Origin: a virus
Lineage: Duplodnaviria; Caudoviricetes
IMG/VR virus record: IMGVR_UViG_3300050159_000048
Reading direction: 5' to 3' (one strand)
DNA: 64,000 nt
The position numbers and the translations under genes are program-made. Below the pieces are notes generated by a model. The model was not told the origin of the DNA, searched no databases, and was given only the letters and a program-made list of their open reading frames with translations. Positions within the stretch are counted from its first letter, which is position 1, and every line of letters starts with the position of its first letter. Below, one piece after another: positions 2,828 to 63,584 of the stretch.

Positions 2828-2914
2828 TTTTTCCTTTCTATCACCTGTCATTATCACGTCGAGGGTTGGGTCAAATCAAGCGCGGATGTGACAGGGGAGC
2901 TATTTATCACGCAT

Positions 2915-2945
2915 AAAAAAAGAGCCCCTTTCGGGGCTCTTTTTA
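2915..2945. terminator. Intrinsic terminator (bidirectional shape)
   Basis: aaaaaagagcccc-tttc-ggggctcttttt. Confidence 0.85.
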
Positions 2946-3302
2946 TTCATCAGACTTGTCTAAGGGGTCGTTATGCCCACCAACATCGTCGGGGTCGCGC
3001 AGCTTCCCTTCAATGACGGTTTCGTACAGCGTCTCGAAGTGGCGATTTTCCTCGAGCATAGATCCGTAGTTGTGCTTGTACATCGTGGCAGCAATCTTAC
3101 GAACCAGCTTCTTGTCAACACCGTATTCAGCAGCAATGTCTGCAACCGATTCCTTCATACCTTCCTTCAGATCGTCGATTTGTTGGTGGTAATGAGTCAC
3201 AGTGGCCAGTGCTGACTTGAACTTCTTGCGAATTTCCGGATCAGCCAGAATGTTGCCCTTGTTGTTATCGTCTGCGGAACGTGCTTTTACTGGTTTAACC
3301 AT
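2943..3302 (-). CDS. dsbA: T4 DsbA-like double-stranded DNA binding protein
   Basis: Helical 119 aa protein with IDDLKEGMKESVADIAAEYGVDKKLVRKIAATMYK..ETLYETV resembling T4 DsbA pattern. Confidence 0.65.
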   Translation of the reverse strand: MVKPVKARSADDNNKGNILADPEIRKKFKSALATVTHYHQQIDDLKEGMKESVADIAAEYGVDKKLVRKIAATMYKHNYGSMLEENRHFETLYETVIEGKLRDPDDVGGHNDPLDKSDE

Positions 3303-3338
3303 GATTTCTCCTTATTGTTATAGTCTAATCTTAGTGGG

Positions 3339-4052
3339 TCAAATACGTTGCGACAACAGGCCGTGTTTTTTGTTAAACGGCTGAACTTGCTTTGTAATCA
3401 AGCTCCGTACGCCTACAACGTAGGCGTATTGGGCTGGTGAGCGTAGATGTTCCACGTTACCGATGCCCATATTGTATGCTGCTACTGCCTTATCCCAGTT
3501 GCCGTTGCATAGGTCAAAGTACAACTTGAAATGCATTGCAGCGATTCGAATGTTTGCCTCGTCATTGTTTAGTAGCAAGGCTACGATCTCATCGTTGGTG
3601 ACTTTATCGTATGGTTTGTGGGGGAAGTAAACTTTCGCAACTTGGGGGTTGCGCTGCAAAACTGACCGTGCTGCAACCACTTGAACTTGCATCAATCCGT
3701 ATGATCGCTTGCTTGCTGCTGCTCCGCGGTTACCGATCGGGTCGCTCTGGCCACCCTTAGTTTCACGCAGCAAGATAGCTTGCAGGGTTTCTGGATGTCC
3801 TACCTCACTTCCAATCTGAAACACTCTCTTCATGTTGTCTACAGCAGTTCGCGTAAACGCTTGGAGTTGTGTTGTGGTTTCTGGCTGTGTACGCGTTGGT
3901 GTACGCACAACAGTTGCTTGTGGCTCTGCTACTACAACTTCTGGCAGCGCTGATTCAGTGGATGCTGAACCTTCTGCATATGCGAATGATTCAGTCATCA
4001 TCAACACGAATAGCAACAGAGACGCGGTTATTCGATGATTGCTCATCTTCAT
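3339..4052 (-). CDS. Lytic transglycosylase (SLT domain) with N-terminal signal/TM segment
   Basis: AILLRETKGG catalytic Glu, SYGLMQV, AVAAYNMG motifs; hydrophobic N-terminus. Confidence 0.9.
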   Translation of the reverse strand: MKMSNHRITASLLLFVLMMTESFAYAEGSASTESALPEVVVAEPQATVVRTPTRTQPETTTQLQAFTRTAVDNMKRVFQIGSEVGHPETLQAILLRETKGGQSDPIGNRGAAASKRSYGLMQVQVVAARSVLQRNPQVAKVYFPHKPYDKVTNDEIVALLLNNDEANIRIAAMHFKLYFDLCNGNWDKAVAAYNMGIGNVEHLRSPAQYAYVVGVRSLITKQVQPFNKKHGLLSQRI

Positions 4053-23101: not shown

Positions 23102-23199
23102 AGTTTGGTAATAAGGTTAATCACACCTCATGCCGGTATGTTATTAAGCTGCAAGGGCACCTTTTTATCAAGGAGCGGATTACACACAGCAAATGGAAA

Positions 23200-23507
23200 G
23201 AGGTGGATGTTAGTCCACCTCTTTAATCATGTTGGGTTACAAGGTTGATCAGACCCCGTGGAGTTTACGCCGCTAGGCGCATTTCTCCGTAAAATGCATC
23301 GTTAGCATTTAGTTGATTTGCTTGATTTACGGTCATCGCCTACCGTGCTGTCCACTTCAATACTCATCGCCCAGTCGAAACCATGACATCCCCATTACAA
23401 ATCACACCAATTGGTGTGATTTGTGGTGGAGATGGCGGGAGTCGAACCCGCGTCCTGAACTCTTTCTATCCACTTCTGTTCCTACTTTTGTAGGATGTTC
23501 ACAGCAA
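23200..23507 (-). ncRNA. ssrA: Circularly permuted (two-piece) tmRNA; outer ends approximate
   Basis: Acceptor piece ends GCGGG-UUCGACU-CCCGC-CAUCUCC-A-CCA at 23424; coding piece starts GGGGAUG at 23393; G3:U70; tag frame 23306-23265 ANDAFYGEMRLAA*. Confidence 0.92.
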
Positions 23508-23539
23508 TACGTCTATTTACTCATATTTTGAGGGAAACG

Positions 23540-23749
23540 TCAACTGTCACAATCTAGCGATTCTTCGTCGTCGTGATCAATAATGTGTCTTAGTTGTTGC
23601 TTACCTATGTTGCGCTCGCGCTTATGGATCGCATGCTTGATCTTTTTGCGAGCCTCACGGACTTCTTTCTTATTGGATTGTGTTTCCACCTGACCCAACA
23701 AATCGTACGTCTCCTTCAAGTGCTGAGTTCTTTTGTCTTGTTGCTTCAT
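23540..23749 (-). CDS. Hypothetical basic protein
   Basis: Start MKQQDK after GAGG SD. Confidence 0.5.
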   Translation of the reverse strand: MKQQDKRTQHLKETYDLLGQVETQSNKKEVREARKKIKHAIHKRERNIGKQQLRHIIDHDDEESLDCDS

Positions 23750-24065
23750 AATTGGCCTCGTATTGTTCCACAAGGTAACGCACAATGTCACGAAGTTCGC
23801 CGCCAGTCAACTCACAAACCTTCATGACTTGTGTATCTTCGGCACCTAAATGATACCGAATGGGATTGATTGAGCCCATATCGTGCCGTTGGGCAATGAC
23901 GATATTGTCAAAATCAATTTCGTTGTAGCTGTCCCCTTCAGGCACAGTGAAGAACTCACCTTCACCCTCAATGTAGCCATCCTCGTCAATATTGACAGCG
24001 ACGAGTACTACTGAGGATTCTCCGGGCTCAGAGGGGACACGAATAATGGCTAGATCTGGTTTCAT
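23670..24065 (-). CDS. Hypothetical acidic protein
   Basis: ORF in minus operon. Confidence 0.6.
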   Translation of the reverse strand: MKPDLAIIRVPSEPGESSVVLVAVNIDEDGYIEGEGEFFTVPEGDSYNEIDFDNIVIAQRHDMGSINPIRYHLGAEDTQVMKVCELTGGELRDIVRYLVEQYEANYEATRQKNSALEGDVRFVGSGGNTIQ

Positions 24066-45649: not shown

Positions 45650-45670
45650 CGAGCAACGATAGATACTAAA

Positions 45671-46030
45671 GCCTGCCAACGAAGTAGGCCGCTGAAACAA
45701 CACAGCGTAATAACTAGAAACATCAGGAGTGCATGCCTTTTCTGCCTCCGGAGTGGGAACAGAGACTGTGGAGCCAGTCTAACGAGCCTTTGGCTATAGA
45801 AGCCATAAAGTTGACCACCTTGGGAGTAATGGCTCCTTTTTTACCAAAACAGTAAGCCTGTGTTCTCAGGCCGCGAGGTATCTTCCAAATCAGCTGCGTT
45901 AATGCGGGGGCAGGGGATGATTAAAGAGCCCGGCTTGTATTAACCGAGTATGACAGCTTCCGAACTATGGCAACGTTATGAACGTAGTGAGTAACGTGCT
46001 GATAGTTCGCCGCCTGTAAAGGCGGTCTCT
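45671..46030 (+). ncRNA. Candidate structured non-coding RNA(s)
   Basis: ORF-free 360 nt with at least 8 hairpins, G-U pairs and a GNRA loop favouring the plus strand. Confidence 0.5.
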
Positions 46031-48154: not shown

Positions 48155-48824
48155 ACAACATCCCGCGCTTGACCAATTGACGGTAGGTGCGGGACTTTGT
48201 CTTTTCAGGGAACAACTGCTCAATCTGACGAGCACGCATTGCCTCCCCAAAGCGCTTAATAGCCACATCGCGAGCATTCGCTGGATTCTCACGTAACGCC
48301 TTGCGCATTACTCCTGTCATCAAATGGAGAACCTCAGAGAATCGCGCATTGAGCTCCATTGGACTAGCTAGGTACTGATAATCTCGATCGGAGTTAGACG
48401 CATCTGGTGCCTGAGTGTACCGATCACTACTCGTTGCGCGGTATCCCGACAAGATATCATCCAGCGCATGACGCAATTCGTGGGTAATAATCGTCCGCAT
48501 GCGAGATTCACCCAACCGATCGCGATTGAGCACAAGCATCTTATATTCAGGATCCCAAAATCCCATATACCGCTCTGCATTTTCTTCGCTGTATTCCTGT
48601 CGAGCGAATGCTTGCATCTCTTCAGCGCCATACAGGACAACATCAATAGCATCAATCTGCTTATTGCCTGTGTTAACAAACTTGCCAATAGGCCCCAACA
48701 TTTGCGCTTCGCTTGGCTGAAACTCTGATGTTGCCATTGGCTTCAACTTTGCATACAATGAGTTAGCTGCACGTATCAATGTGTGCTGATCTTCAATGCC
48801 TTCCAGTACTTGTTGCAGCTTCAT
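48120..48824 (-). CDS. Late protein with HExxH zincin motif
   Basis: THELRHALD..ELNAR; N-terminus MKLQQVLE; CTAAATA upstream. Confidence 0.7.
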   Translation of the reverse strand: MKLQQVLEGIEDQHTLIRAANSLYAKLKPMATSEFQPSEAQMLGPIGKFVNTGNKQIDAIDVVLYGAEEMQAFARQEYSEENAERYMGFWDPEYKMLVLNRDRLGESRMRTIITHELRHALDDILSGYRATSSDRYTQAPDASNSDRDYQYLASPMELNARFSEVLHLMTGVMRKALRENPANARDVAIKRFGEAMRARQIEQLFPEKTKSRTYRQLVKRGMLFIDSFLEKQGL

Positions 48825-48845
48825 GTTAACGATCTCCAGATAGGG

Positions 48846-48852
48846 TATTTAG
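48846..48852 (-). promoter_or_regulatory. Late promoter CTAAATA
   Basis: 21 nt upstream of ATG 48824. Confidence 0.6.
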
Positions 48853-48860
48853 CAGGTCCG

Positions 48861-48889
48861 TTGACTTAATCTTTACCCTTTGCTATAGT
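48861..48889 (+). promoter_or_regulatory. Sigma70-like promoter
   Basis: GTTGACT-17-TATAGT upstream of large ncRNA and tRNAs. Confidence 0.75.
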
Positions 48890-49019
48890 TCACTGCATCG
48901 GTTAAACGACACGTTGTTGAGAAGGGCGGGATTGATCCCCACAACAGCAACTCTCTTTTACCCGATACTAAATAGATGCCCGTTGACTTAAAGACGAAAA
49001 CGTAATACAGATGACGACA

Positions 49020-49945
49020 TCGCAAGCAACAACAGCTTGCAACGCTCTTTAAGAAATTAGTAGTAAATCGAAACTACTTTCACAGACGACTGTGAAAGAC
49101 GGTTTTCCGTGAAAGTAGTTTTGGGGCATGGCCCCGATAAGCGTGGCGACACGTAAAAGCAGAATGTCCTACACATCTGCGCCAAAACCGAAAGGTGGTG
49201 GTCAATCCATGCAAGCCTAAACCTCTTCCGAAAGGAAGTAATCGCTGACCGCGGTTATAGGTAGGAAGTCAGTGTTGTGGAAAGAACGTTTGCTCAAGCG
49301 CCCGCAAGGGTAACGCAAGTAGACGGAAAGTAACGCGTGGTGGCGACTTCACAACAAAACCAACTGACCAATACGTATGGTTAAAGGTAGTGTTATGGTC
49401 TGAGATTCGCACTCAAAGGCTGTAATGCAAACTGATAGGGCATCGGTGACTGAGATATGTTGTCAGTGTTCTTGAAAGTTGATTGAGTAGCCGGCAGGTG
49501 AAAGATATGAGGTGTGTTGTATTTCGTAGCCCAAAAGGTTATGAAGCAACTGGACGCACACATCTCGGTAGGTTATGCAGCGGGTGATTCCGCACATTTC
49601 AATAGGTATGAAATCTTTATCAAAAACGCAAAGTTGCGTCCGGTGCAACGTGAAAGTGGCTTAATCCTGCAGCTGAAAAGTAATGCAGGCAATCAAAGCT
49701 CGCAAGGCAGAGATTGTTGAAGAAGAATCGCACGTAGAGAGTTAGCGCTCTTGAACAGCCCGCAAGGTTGGCGGTAGAGGAAACTTCGAATAGCGTTGTA
49801 CGACGAGCGAACCGCCACGCTCTAAATAAGGCAGTCATGTTAGTGTACATCCTTGAGGATGTGGATAAGAGTAGAACCGCTGGTGTAGCAACTAGTTGGA
49901 TAATGACTCAAAAGTGCTAACATTAATGGTGTAATCTCAACCATA
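49020..49945 (+). ncRNA. Large structured ncRNA, GOLLD-like
   Basis: ~925 nt without credible ORF, many GNRA hairpins, 3' domain AAGGCAGUCAUG..GAGUAG..ACUCAAAAG..GUAAUCUCA directly before a tRNA. Confidence 0.7.
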
Positions 49946-49950
49946 CTCAT

Positions 49951-50025
49951 CTCGGTGTAGCGCAGTCTGGTTAGCGCATCTGCTTTGGGAGCAGAGGGTC
50001 GTAGGTTCGAATCCTACTACCGAGA
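49951..50025 (+). tRNA. tRNA-Pro(UGG)
   Basis: Cloverleaf, tctgc-tt TGG ga-gcaga; CCA not encoded. Confidence 0.95.
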
Positions 50026-50043
50026 CATAAATAGAAGTACAAT

Positions 50044-50119
50044 GCGGACATAGTACAATTGGTAGTACATCACCTTGCCAAGGTGAAGGTTGCGGGTTCG
50101 AGACCCGCTGTCCGCTCCA
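50044..50119 (+). tRNA. tRNA-Gly(GCC)
   Basis: tcacc-tt GCC aa-ggtga, CCA encoded. Confidence 0.95.
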
Positions 50120-50120
50120 A

Positions 50121-50558
50121 ATGATAACGTGTGTAGTTTGCAAACAAATAAAACCCGATGAAGATTTTAATTGGCGAAATAAAAGCCAAGGCCTCAGAAA
50201 GAACAATTGCAAACCATGTGATCGTGAAATGAAACGGCGGTTTTATGTAAACCATCGTGAGCAGGTGATTGCTGAGAATGTTGACCGAAATCTAAGGAAG
50301 AAGCAAACCTTCCAATCTTGGAAACAATCTCTGTCATGTTGCATGTGTGGTGAAACAGATGAAGCATGTTTAGACTTTCACCACAAGGACCCAACTCAGA
50401 AAGAATTCTTGATCTCTAAGTTGGTAACCAATAGCTCTTTTGAAAAGTTGAAAGCAGAATTGTCTAAGTGTGTTTGTGTGTGCGCAAACTGCCATCGCAA
50501 AATACATAAATACAATCTGTCAGTTCCTGATAATGCGGGTGTAGTGTTTAACGGTTAG
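50121..50558 (+). mobile_element. HNH endonuclease inserted in tRNA cluster
   Basis: CVVC..CKPC N-terminus; CCMCG..CLDFHH..KCVCVCANCH. Confidence 0.85.
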
Positions 50559-50612
50559 CACGAAAGTCTTCCAAACTTTAGGTGAGGAGTTCGAATCTCC
50601 CCACCCGCTCCA
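50535..50612 (+). tRNA. tRNA-Gly(UCC)
   Basis: aaagt-ct TCC aa-acttt, CCA. Confidence 0.93.
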
Positions 50613-51799: not shown

Positions 51800-51875
51800 G
51801 CGCTCGTAGCTCAGTGGTTAGAGCGGCGGTCTCTAAAACCGTTTGTCGCGGGTTCGAATCCCGCCGAGCGCACCA
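51800..51875 (+). tRNA. Amber suppressor tRNA (CUA)
   Basis: gcggt-ct CTA aa-accgt; complete cloverleaf, A73, CCA. Confidence 0.92.
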
Positions 51876-60370: not shown

Positions 60371-60508
60371 CTCATCATTGATTGATAACCGCTTAGGAAA
60401 TCAATCGCAAAACGAACCCCAACTGCGAAAAGTTGACCCCGTTGACTTCTAGCATAAATAGAAAGACAGTTGACGTAATCGTTCAACAACATTCAAGGAT
60501 TTAATCAA

Positions 60509-60640
60509 ATGCAACACTCTCTGCGACATTTTGGAAGCCAACTGAGCCAGCAATGGTTTAGCATGGACTCCGTCCGTCCAGAATTGTGTGGTGATTATAG
60601 CCTCGAACCTACGATCGCCCTTTGTGGAGGAACTGTATAA
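60509..60640 (+). CDS. 43 aa leader-like peptide
   Basis: AAGGA SD; MQHSLRHFGSQLSQQWFSMDSVRPELCGDYSLEPTIALCGGTV*. Confidence 0.4.
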   Translation: MQHSLRHFGSQLSQQWFSMDSVRPELCGDYSLEPTIALCGGTV

Positions 60641-60672
60641 GCGAAAGCAAAATACAAGTTCAGAATAAACGC

Positions 60673-60709
60673 AAAGGGCCTCGGGTAAAACCAAGGCCCT
60701 TTTCTTTTG
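60673..60709 (+). terminator. Intrinsic terminator/attenuator before tRNA array
   Basis: aaagggcct...aggcccttttctttt. Confidence 0.75.
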
Positions 60710-60884
60710 TCCTGTACAAAAACCGGTGGAAGGCCATCGGTATAGCAAAATAAACTGACCGCGTTGACTCAGCCGAGTACTCTTCAGGCTGCCGAGTGCG
60801 ATAAAGGGAAGCATTGGGAAACGGTGCTTGTGAAAACAAGCATTGTTTCTACAGAGCATACAAAATGTGTTCTGTAAAAACAAT

Positions 60885-60961
60885 GGTGTACGTAGCTCAA
60901 TTGGTAGAGCCCAGGATTGTGATTCCTGCCGTTGCGAGTTCGAATCTCGTCGTACACCCCA
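60885..60961 (+). tRNA. tRNA-His(GUG) with encoded G-1
   Basis: cagga-tt GTG at-tcctg; G-1:C73; CCA. Confidence 0.95.
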
Positions 60962-61162: not shown

Positions 61163-61249
61163 CTGGGTGTAACTCAGCCAGGTCAGAGTGCCAGTTTTGG
61201 AAGCTGGAAGCCCGAAGGGATCTCGCAGGTTCGAATCCTGCCATCCAGA
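61163..61249 (+). tRNA. tRNA-Pro(UGG) with long variable arm
   Basis: ccagt-tt TGG aa-gctgg; 17-nt variable region. Confidence 0.85.
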
Positions 61250-61264
61250 CAGTACACATATTAT

Positions 61265-61446: not shown

Positions 61447-61535
61447 AGGGGCGTAGTGTAATTGGTTAACATCCCAGGCTTTGAACCTGGAGACCGAGAA
61501 GGTATATGTAGGTTCGAGTCCTACCGCCCCCGCCA
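61447..61535 (+). tRNA. tRNA-Gln(UUG) with long variable arm
   Basis: ccagg-ct TTG aa-cctgg; 17-nt variable region; A1:C72 mismatch, G73, CCA. Confidence 0.85.
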
Positions 61536-63164: not shown

Positions 63165-63247
63165 GTAGGTGCCATCCTTGGAGAGATAAGCACGCTGTAA
63201 ACGTGTGGCCTTTGGCTGAGTAGGTTCGATTCCTACCACCTACACCA
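63165..63247 (+). tRNA. tRNA-Tyr(GUA)
   Basis: gcacg-ct GTA aa-cgtgt, long variable arm, A73, CCA. Confidence 0.88.
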
Positions 63248-63497: not shown

Positions 63498-63584
63498 GGG
63501 TGATGAGCAGCACTGGCGACTGCAGCAGACTGTAAATCTGTGTGCCTTCGGGCAAACTAGGTTCGACTCCTAGATCACCCACCA
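63498..63584 (+). tRNA. Second tRNA-Tyr(GUA)
   Basis: gcaga-ct GTA aa-tctgt, variable arm tgcc-ttcg-ggca, CCA. Confidence 0.93.

Follow-up and report, generated by a model that had tools for sequence, protein, structure and literature searches.

Does the stretch of about 0.9 kb (49020-49945) that directly precedes a tRNA gene in a phage genome encode a giant RNA of the GOLLD family, and if so, where does that RNA begin and end and how might it be produced? GOLLD ranks among the largest non-coding RNAs of bacteria and phages. A preliminary description of the locus had proposed a GOLLD-like RNA on the basis of dense pairing, of 3′ motifs like those of the family and of the adjoining tRNA. The window, which is the whole 64,000-nucleotide stretch of DNA analysed here, comes from a 183-kb IMG/VR virus record of an uncultured phage from leaf litter with a CheckV completeness estimate of 52%. 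This giant phage is T4-like but very divergent, its topoisomerase being about 34% identical to those of its nearest cultured relatives.

A GOLLD RNA gene beside tRNA-Pro

We utilized cmsearch over the whole window, the check that the preliminary description had proposed, and identified a match to the Rfam 15 family RF02032 (GOLLD) at 49509-49943 on the + strand. Its score of 218.8 bits exceeds the gathering score of 150 (E = 1.4e-60), its alignment spans the full length of the model (positions 1-416 of 416), and it is the only GOLLD copy in the 183-kb record. ROOL, the other family named for comparison, gave no match at the gathering threshold in the whole window and none in a permissive scan of 48825-49520, and the Rfam 15 scan of the whole window returned no match to other large-RNA families. 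The permissive scan of 48825-49520 also produced a hit to Ysr197, whose 16.8 bits fall far below the gathering score of 167 and which we regard as a chance match.

The region had been described as non-coding, and no ORF longer than 76 amino acids overlaps 49020-49945 on either strand. The fold of 49020-49945 has a z-score of -3.72 against shuffled sequences on the + strand, whereas the - strand is not better than its shuffles (z = -1.61). All of the pairings quoted earlier could be located at their places in the sequence. These include the GNRA hairpins ccGAAAgg (49188-49195) and cttccGAAAggaag (49225-49238), cGCAAg loops at about 49301, 49699 and 49770, the pairings atgttag/ctaacat (49838-49844/49919-49925) and acatcc/ggatgt (49848-49853/49858-49863), and the terminal atggt-gtaatctca-accat (49926-49944), which is followed after 6 nt by tRNA-Pro. 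The 3′ motifs had been attributed to the GOLLD 3′ domain and the covariance model (CM) alignment agrees; the linkage to a tRNA (tRNA-Pro(UGG), starting at 49951) and the phage context (an IMG/VR virus record) were likewise correct. With a probability of roughly 0.9, the locus of this giant phage is a genuine GOLLD RNA gene. The family was known before, and what the new member adds is modest, namely an apparent rRNA-style leader and the probable ends of the RNA.

The upstream half is a covarying GOLLD 5′ domain

The RF02032 model covers the conserved GOLLD 3′ domain only, and the upstream half of the RNA was therefore subjected to a separate test. A search with the conserved 3′ pattern retrieved 63 IMG/VR loci, and blastn revealed that part of the upstream half of the window is common to a subset of these. 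A pattern built from the invariant columns of the 5′ domain identified at least 118 further IMG/VR contigs, and among the matches listed 88 carry the GOLLD 3′-terminal motif 550-700 nt downstream of the 5′ pattern. An alignment of 57 sequences, together with its consensus fold, delimits the domain as follows.

49123..49508 (+): GOLLD 5′ domain (cap domain), opening with the hairpin GGGGCATGGCCCC

Conservation in the 57-sequence alignment begins at this hairpin (49123-49135), which is followed by GATAAG. RNAalifold on the 57 non-redundant sequences yielded 116 pairs, 91 of them with compensatory changes, a pair being counted as such when at least one sequence has both sides changed. In control folds, in which the 3′ partners were slid by 1-3 columns, standard pairing fell from 98.0% of cells to 33-45% and the number of double-change pairs from 91 to 39-53. 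The window's own sequence satisfies almost every helix of the consensus fold. The upstream half thus represents the common GOLLD 5′ domain, shows strong covariation and joins directly onto the 3′ domain. As a structured unit it answers to the 5′ part of about 400 nt (P1-P13) of known GOLLD RNAs.

The 3′ domain, linker and flanking tRNAs

The CM alignment resolves the 3′ domain into the P13 hairpin, an unpaired linker, a long-range helix, a three-way junction with P21a and P21b, and a terminal hairpin. Two tRNA genes follow on the same strand.

49509..49943 (+): GOLLD 3′ domain (RF02032, 218.8 bits) with P13 hairpin, J13/15 linker, P21a, P21b and P27
49572..49640 (+): variable single-stranded linker J13/15, unpaired in the CM alignment
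49737-49752 (+): P21a, loop UUAGCG (CM alignment)
about 49756-49771 (+): P21b, loop CGCAAG (CM alignment)
49926..49944 (+): terminal hairpin P27 with the conserved loop GUAAUCUCA (CM alignment and fold)
49951..50026 (+): tRNA-Pro(UGG), 6 nt after P27 and 7 nt after the end of the RF02032 match (ARAGORN and Rfam)
50044..50119 (+): tRNA-Gly(GCC), next in the same rightward stable-RNA unit as GOLLD and tRNA-Pro (ARAGORN and Rfam)

ARAGORN detected no tRNA within the window's J13/15 linker (49572-49640), whereas 41 of the 56 non-redundant relatives that share its 5′ domain type have a tRNA, or a module resembling one, at this place. These linker tRNAs are mostly Asn(GUU) or Lys, some having odd anticodon loops that ARAGORN reports as '???'. 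The window RNA belongs to the shorter minority without a linker tRNA (about 790-826 nt). To have a tRNA no more than 30 nt from the GOLLD 3′ end, as the window does, is rare (2/56 relatives).

Among GOLLD RNAs of known structure, env-38 is an 833-nt RNA from a marine metagenome that was resolved by cryo-EM as a 14-mer (PDB 9MEE; Kretsch et al., bioRxiv 10.1101/2024.12.08.627333). Compared by published description, the window RNA shares with env-38 the two-domain layout, the conserved 3′ domain with P21a and P21b, the P27 loop GUAAUCUCA, a similar length (about 822 against 833 nt) and a phage context beside a tRNA. The placement of the tRNA differs, that of the window lying downstream, 6 nt from the 3′ end, whereas env-38 is itself downstream of tRNA-Met. 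The 700-nt GOLLD of Streptococcus agalactiae forms a 12-mer and its 3′ domain alone a 10-mer (PMC12990946). Cage formation has thus been reported for the GOLLD family (bioRxiv 10.1101/2024.12.08.627333; PMC12990946), in which the linker faces the cage interior and P21b, P11a-c and similar elements govern whether a 10-, 12- or 14-mer forms (bioRxiv 10.1101/2024.12.08.627333; PMC12990946). The S. agalactiae and Mycolicibacterium GOLLDs are of the same family as the window RNA, share its 3′ core and likewise lie in tRNA arrays. However, S. agalactiae GOLLD lacks P9, P11a-c and P21b, of which the window RNA keeps P21b, and Mycolicibacterium GOLLD carries a tRNA-Phe in J13/15, where the window has none. 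ROOL, like GOLLD, is a large ornate phage-associated RNA found near tRNAs that forms RNA-only cages, although the two are unrelated in sequence and fold.

Candidate promoters and a proposed rRNA-type leader

Upstream of the conserved body we identified a number of candidate promoter and leader elements.

48861..48889 (+): P1, putative sigma70-like promoter TTGACT-17 nt-TATAGT with a TG extension (consensus scan, 10/12 matches)
48983..49011 (+): P2, candidate promoter TTGACT-17 nt-TACAGA with a weak -10 (spacing read from the sequence)
49022..49040 (+): boxB-like leader hairpin GCAAGC-7-nt loop-GCTTGC (-8.9 kcal/mol; z = -1.39, not significant alone)
49043..49059 (+): putative boxA-like antitermination motif CGCTCTTTAAGAAATTA (14/17 against the E. 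coli rrn boxA-spacer)
about 49068-49124 (+): long, lineage-specific leader hairpin of 22-24 bp (-29.5 kcal/mol; z = -6.45), a candidate RNase III-type site

The consensus scan thus recovered, as P1, the sigma70-like promoter that had been placed upstream of the RNA. The putative late promoter of the preliminary description would be of T4 type, with the candidate motif cTAAATAg at about 48969. The 12-mer CCGTTGACTTAA occurs in two exact copies on the + strand, 122 nt apart (48858-48869 and 48980-48991), with P1 in the first and P2 holding the second. Allowing up to two mismatches, 11 copies were found against 4.7 expected, a count as high being reached in 1 of 100 shuffles, which is suggestive of a motif that may act as a phage-specific early promoter. 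Copies with two mismatches also precede the tRNA array at 60439 and 60467. No sigma70 promoter was seen by eye directly upstream of 49123. A hairpin with a U-run after P1 (48913-48960), considered as a terminator or small RNA, was rejected, its fold being not significant (z = -0.28).

The boxA-like motif CGCTCTTTAAGAAATTA matches the E. coli rrn boxA-spacer ugcucuuuaacaauuua (PMC2724277, Table 1) at 14 of 17 positions, and its first base is that of the lambda nut boxA (PMC2724277, Table 1). The 12-mer GCTCTTTAAGAA occurs once in the 183-kb record, exactly in the leader. The shorter 9-mer GCTCTTTAA shows no enrichment across the window, where 10 copies with up to one mismatch stand against 10.7 expected. 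The only other exact copy of GCTCTTTAA in the window (45921-45929, - strand) falls in an intergenic stretch (45667-46027) and could be a second boxA or a chance occurrence. No boxC was recognised by eye in the window leader.

Comparable leader sequences occur in about a third of the related GOLLD loci. A sense G[CT]TCTTT core following a hairpin lies within 300 nt upstream of the RNA body in 18 of the 56 relatives. These 18 sense occurrences compare with 2 on the antisense strand and with an expectation of 3.5 derived from the remainder of the loci (Poisson P = 3e-8). In nearly all cases a -10 box comes first, then a short hairpin and then GTTCTTTAAAAA. The remaining relatives, about two thirds, have no such core within 300 nt or have a promoter directly at the RNA.

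The long leader hairpin includes a 14-bp stem (49070-49083/49109-49122). This was the first stem quoted in the preliminary description as part of the RNA; it is indeed present, but it belongs to a non-conserved leader and probably lies outside the mature RNA. The hairpin does not align with most of the 56 relatives, being conserved neither in position nor in sequence. Taken together, 49020-49122 looks like a leader composed of a small hairpin, an rrn-type boxA and a long hairpin, and we regard the chances that the boxA is functional as evenly balanced.

RNA-library contigs and the probable ends of the RNA

Contigs from four metatranscriptome runs (four studies) fall wholly within 49130-49918 and are 98.6-100% identical to the window.

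49132-49907: metatranscriptome contig, 776 nt, 10 differences
49237-49918: metatranscriptome contig, 682 nt
49142-49853: metatranscriptome contig, 712 nt
49130-49280 and 49552-49836: metatranscriptome contigs, both identical to the window

Their lengths in the four libraries range from 151 to 776 nt; these are contigs, not reads, and RNA libraries may contain DNA. They stem from near-identical freshwater relatives and not from the leaf-litter phage itself, and Logan contigs may be truncated. All are free of loose ends, and the starts of three fall within a span of 12 nt (49130, 49132 and 49142). Leaf-litter DNA runs cover the whole stretch and pass uninterrupted through 49130-49142. No RNA contig reaches into the 49070-49122 hairpin, a weak hint in the same direction. 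Depth is zero at 48500-49091 and 50128-50497 in all four RNA runs, which we did not count as evidence. Two tRNA-sized pieces from the RNA runs (49972-50016 and 50533-50577) were rejected as data on the GOLLD-tRNA junction, as they have loose ends and derive from other organisms; the joints found in the RNA runs were likewise from other organisms.

Where the RNA contigs differ from the window, most of the changes are compatible with the structure. Compensatory double changes convert U-A to C-G at 49227/49236 and A-U to G-C at 49740/49749, a G.U pair becomes Watson-Crick at both 49737 and 49499, and C-G becomes U.G at 49229. One variant, 49226 T>C, would give a C.A mismatch and break a pair.

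Among the 56 relatives, several have a TTGACA-17-TACAAT promoter whose end lies about 8 nt upstream of the first conserved hairpin, and others have a tRNA immediately 5′ of it, so that the functional 5′ end should lie at the conserved body. Contig starts alone are a weak hint; because they agree with these comparative data, we place the mature 5′ end probably near 49123-49132 and not at 49020. The RNA-library contigs and the comparative data thus jointly suggest where the mature RNA starts, and a length of about 0.82 kb is suggested for it. The earlier start at 49020 fits the start of a transcribed leader, whereas the conserved body begins about 100 nt later.

Proposed production and role

Transcription would run rightward from sigma70-type promoters, namely P1 (48861-48889) and possibly also P2 (48983-49011). 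In bacteria the rrn leader nucleates a termination-resistant polymerase (PMC10250234), and an untranslated transcript of about 1 kb is the kind of RNA that would need one. With odds that we judge about level, the leader hairpin and boxA would recruit host NusB/NusE, allowing the structured transcript of about 1 kb and the tRNAs behind it to escape termination. The leader of the window shares with bacterial rrn leaders tandem promoter-like sites, a hairpin, a boxA (14/17), a long stem before the stable RNA and co-transcribed tRNAs (PMC10250234, PMC2724277). In contrast to the bacterial arrangement (P1/P2, boxB-boxA-boxC and an RNase III stem), however, no boxC was recognised in it, and its long stem is a local hairpin rather than a leader-trailer helix.

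The 22-24 bp hairpin (49070-49122) might then be cut away, perhaps by RNase III, a tentative step that we rate somewhat below even. At the other end, RNase P cleavage at the 5′ end of tRNA-Pro would quite probably leave the GOLLD 3′ end at about 49944-49950. By homology with env-38 and S. agalactiae GOLLD, the RNA of about 0.82 kb would most probably assemble without protein into a closed homo-oligomeric shell, in which the 5′ domains would form the caps and the 3′ domains the rings, with the linker facing the interior.

An rrn-like boxA leader in its proteobacterial-type form suggests that GOLLD may be a Nus-protected stable RNA. We tentatively extend this to a scheme in which GOLLD would be made as an rRNA-like product. 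Phages that differ in host group would place a host-type boxA leader before it (GCTCTTTAA in the window, GTTCTTTAAAAA in many lake phages), and host enzymes would then release the RNA by an RNase III-type cut at the leader hairpin and RNase P cleavage at the abutting tRNA. If this holds, cage synthesis would be tied to the host rRNA/tRNA transcription machinery and to growth-rate control, and it would point to a role in the takeover of translation. Our best guess, held with less than even confidence, is that GOLLD takes part in the phage takeover of the tRNA and translation economy, because it is constantly placed in tRNA arrays and here appears to be made like a stable RNA.

Alternative readings

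A reading of the region as no more than a structured leader or spacer belonging to a tRNA operon, without a product of its own, would fit the two tRNAs directly downstream on the same strand, but we consider it scarcely credible given the full-length match to the curated family RF02032, extensive covariation over about 800 nt and the discrete contigs of about 700-780 nt in RNA libraries. If the locus is a GOLLD gene, its RNA could still be longer than proposed here, the mature form spanning about 49018-49950 (0.93 kb) with the boxA region and the 49070-49122 hairpin kept as an extra 5′ arm of the particle. The hairpin is very stable (z = -6.45), a few relatives (L086, L118) also have an additional hairpin just 5′ of the conserved body, and Logan contigs can lose their ends. 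On the other side, the hairpin is unconserved in sequence and position across the 56 relatives, three RNA contigs from different studies start at 49130-49142 without loose ends where the DNA runs continue (a weak hint), and in relatives with a promoter immediately upstream the RNA must begin at the conserved body; an extra arm is in our judgement distinctly unlikely. The boxA-like motif with its preceding hairpin may have arisen by chance beside an ordinary promoter, with no Nus-dependent antitermination. We rate this somewhat below even. It accords with the unenriched 9-mer, the non-significant fold of the boxB-like hairpin (z = -1.39) and a core that is absent within 300 nt in two thirds of the relatives. 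Two further stable-RNA leaders in the window, at 60400-60900 for the main tRNA array and at 23500-23900 (- strand) for the tmRNA, also contain no convincing boxA. A functional boxA is favoured by the 14/17 match to the rrn boxA-spacer, by a 12-mer whose single occurrence in the record falls exactly within the leader, and by the strand-specific enrichment of the hairpin-then-boxA layout in 18/56 relatives (P = 3e-8).

The main rival to a role in translation takeover is one in defence. The GOLLD shell would then act as a decoy or would sequester components of host defence, such as nucleases that cleave tRNA or other defence proteins that bind RNA, and would not be a helper of tRNAs or translation. 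GOLLD always accompanies phage tRNA arrays. Such arrays are widely thought to offset tRNA-targeting defences. The cage interior could also hold macromolecules (bioRxiv 10.1101/2024.12.08.627333). However, no conserved defence-related partner gene lies beside GOLLD in the loci inspected and the neighbouring genes in the window have no informative Pfam match, and we view a decoy as unlikely, preferring the translation-takeover guess.

GOLLD in cultured jumbo phages

GOLLD matches above threshold were identified in the Xanthomonas phages XacN1 and X1 and in the Stenotrophomonas phage CM1, all full-length and scoring 179-227 bits.

XacN1: GOLLD at 2904-3317 of locus L003 and at record positions 357365-357778, one in each 66-kb terminal repeat (2 copies)
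CM1: GOLLD at 3004-3429 of locus L002
X1: GOLLD at 2904-3333 of locus L004

The RNA is unannotated in the GenBank records of all three phages. In the literature searched, no publication connects GOLLD with XacN1, CM1 or X1, and the word is absent from the XacN1 genome paper. Stenotrophomonas phage RAS14 and Xanthomonas phage BUDD also carry GOLLD, as detected by blastn only. Of the GOLLD RNAs in cultured phages, these come nearest to the window in the 3′ domain (66-68% identity). Like the window phage, their carriers are giant phages with tRNA arrays, XacN1 also having a permuted tmRNA. However, the 5′ domains of the cultured jumbo phages are of a different variant, which lacks the window's 5′ motif and aligns poorly, and no boxA-like leader precedes the RNA; for the leader this was observed in CM1 and XacN1. 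XacN1, CM1 and X1 are plaque-forming and thus practical for the deletion and expression work that the GOLLD family has lacked. The window copy brings nothing categorically new, but its leader and ends, together with the cultured phages, could aid functional work.

Neighbouring genes and other stable RNAs

Pfam searches of six neighbouring ORFs identified a weak DUF6782 metallopeptidase, an AAA_28 kinase-like protein and a zinc ribbon, and none of the six could be linked to GOLLD by Pfam. The window encodes about 17 tRNAs and a permuted tmRNA (ARAGORN, Rfam). The tRNAs of the main array (61163-61250, 61447-61535, 63165-63247 and 63498-63584, + strand) include several duplicated types (His, Asp, Tyr, Arg), and its Pro (88 nt) and Gln (89 nt) tRNAs are unusually long, such that their types may be miscalled. 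A tRNA with the anticodon CUA, an amber suppressor reported by ARAGORN as tRNA-Pyl, lies 1.8 kb downstream of GOLLD at 51800-51875 (+). The permuted (two-piece) tmRNA falls at 23174-23524 (-) and carries the tag ANDAFYGEMRLAA; permuted tmRNAs also occur close to GOLLD in XacN1 (1511-1930 of L003) and in a further GOLLD-bearing contig, L047 (2136-2594).
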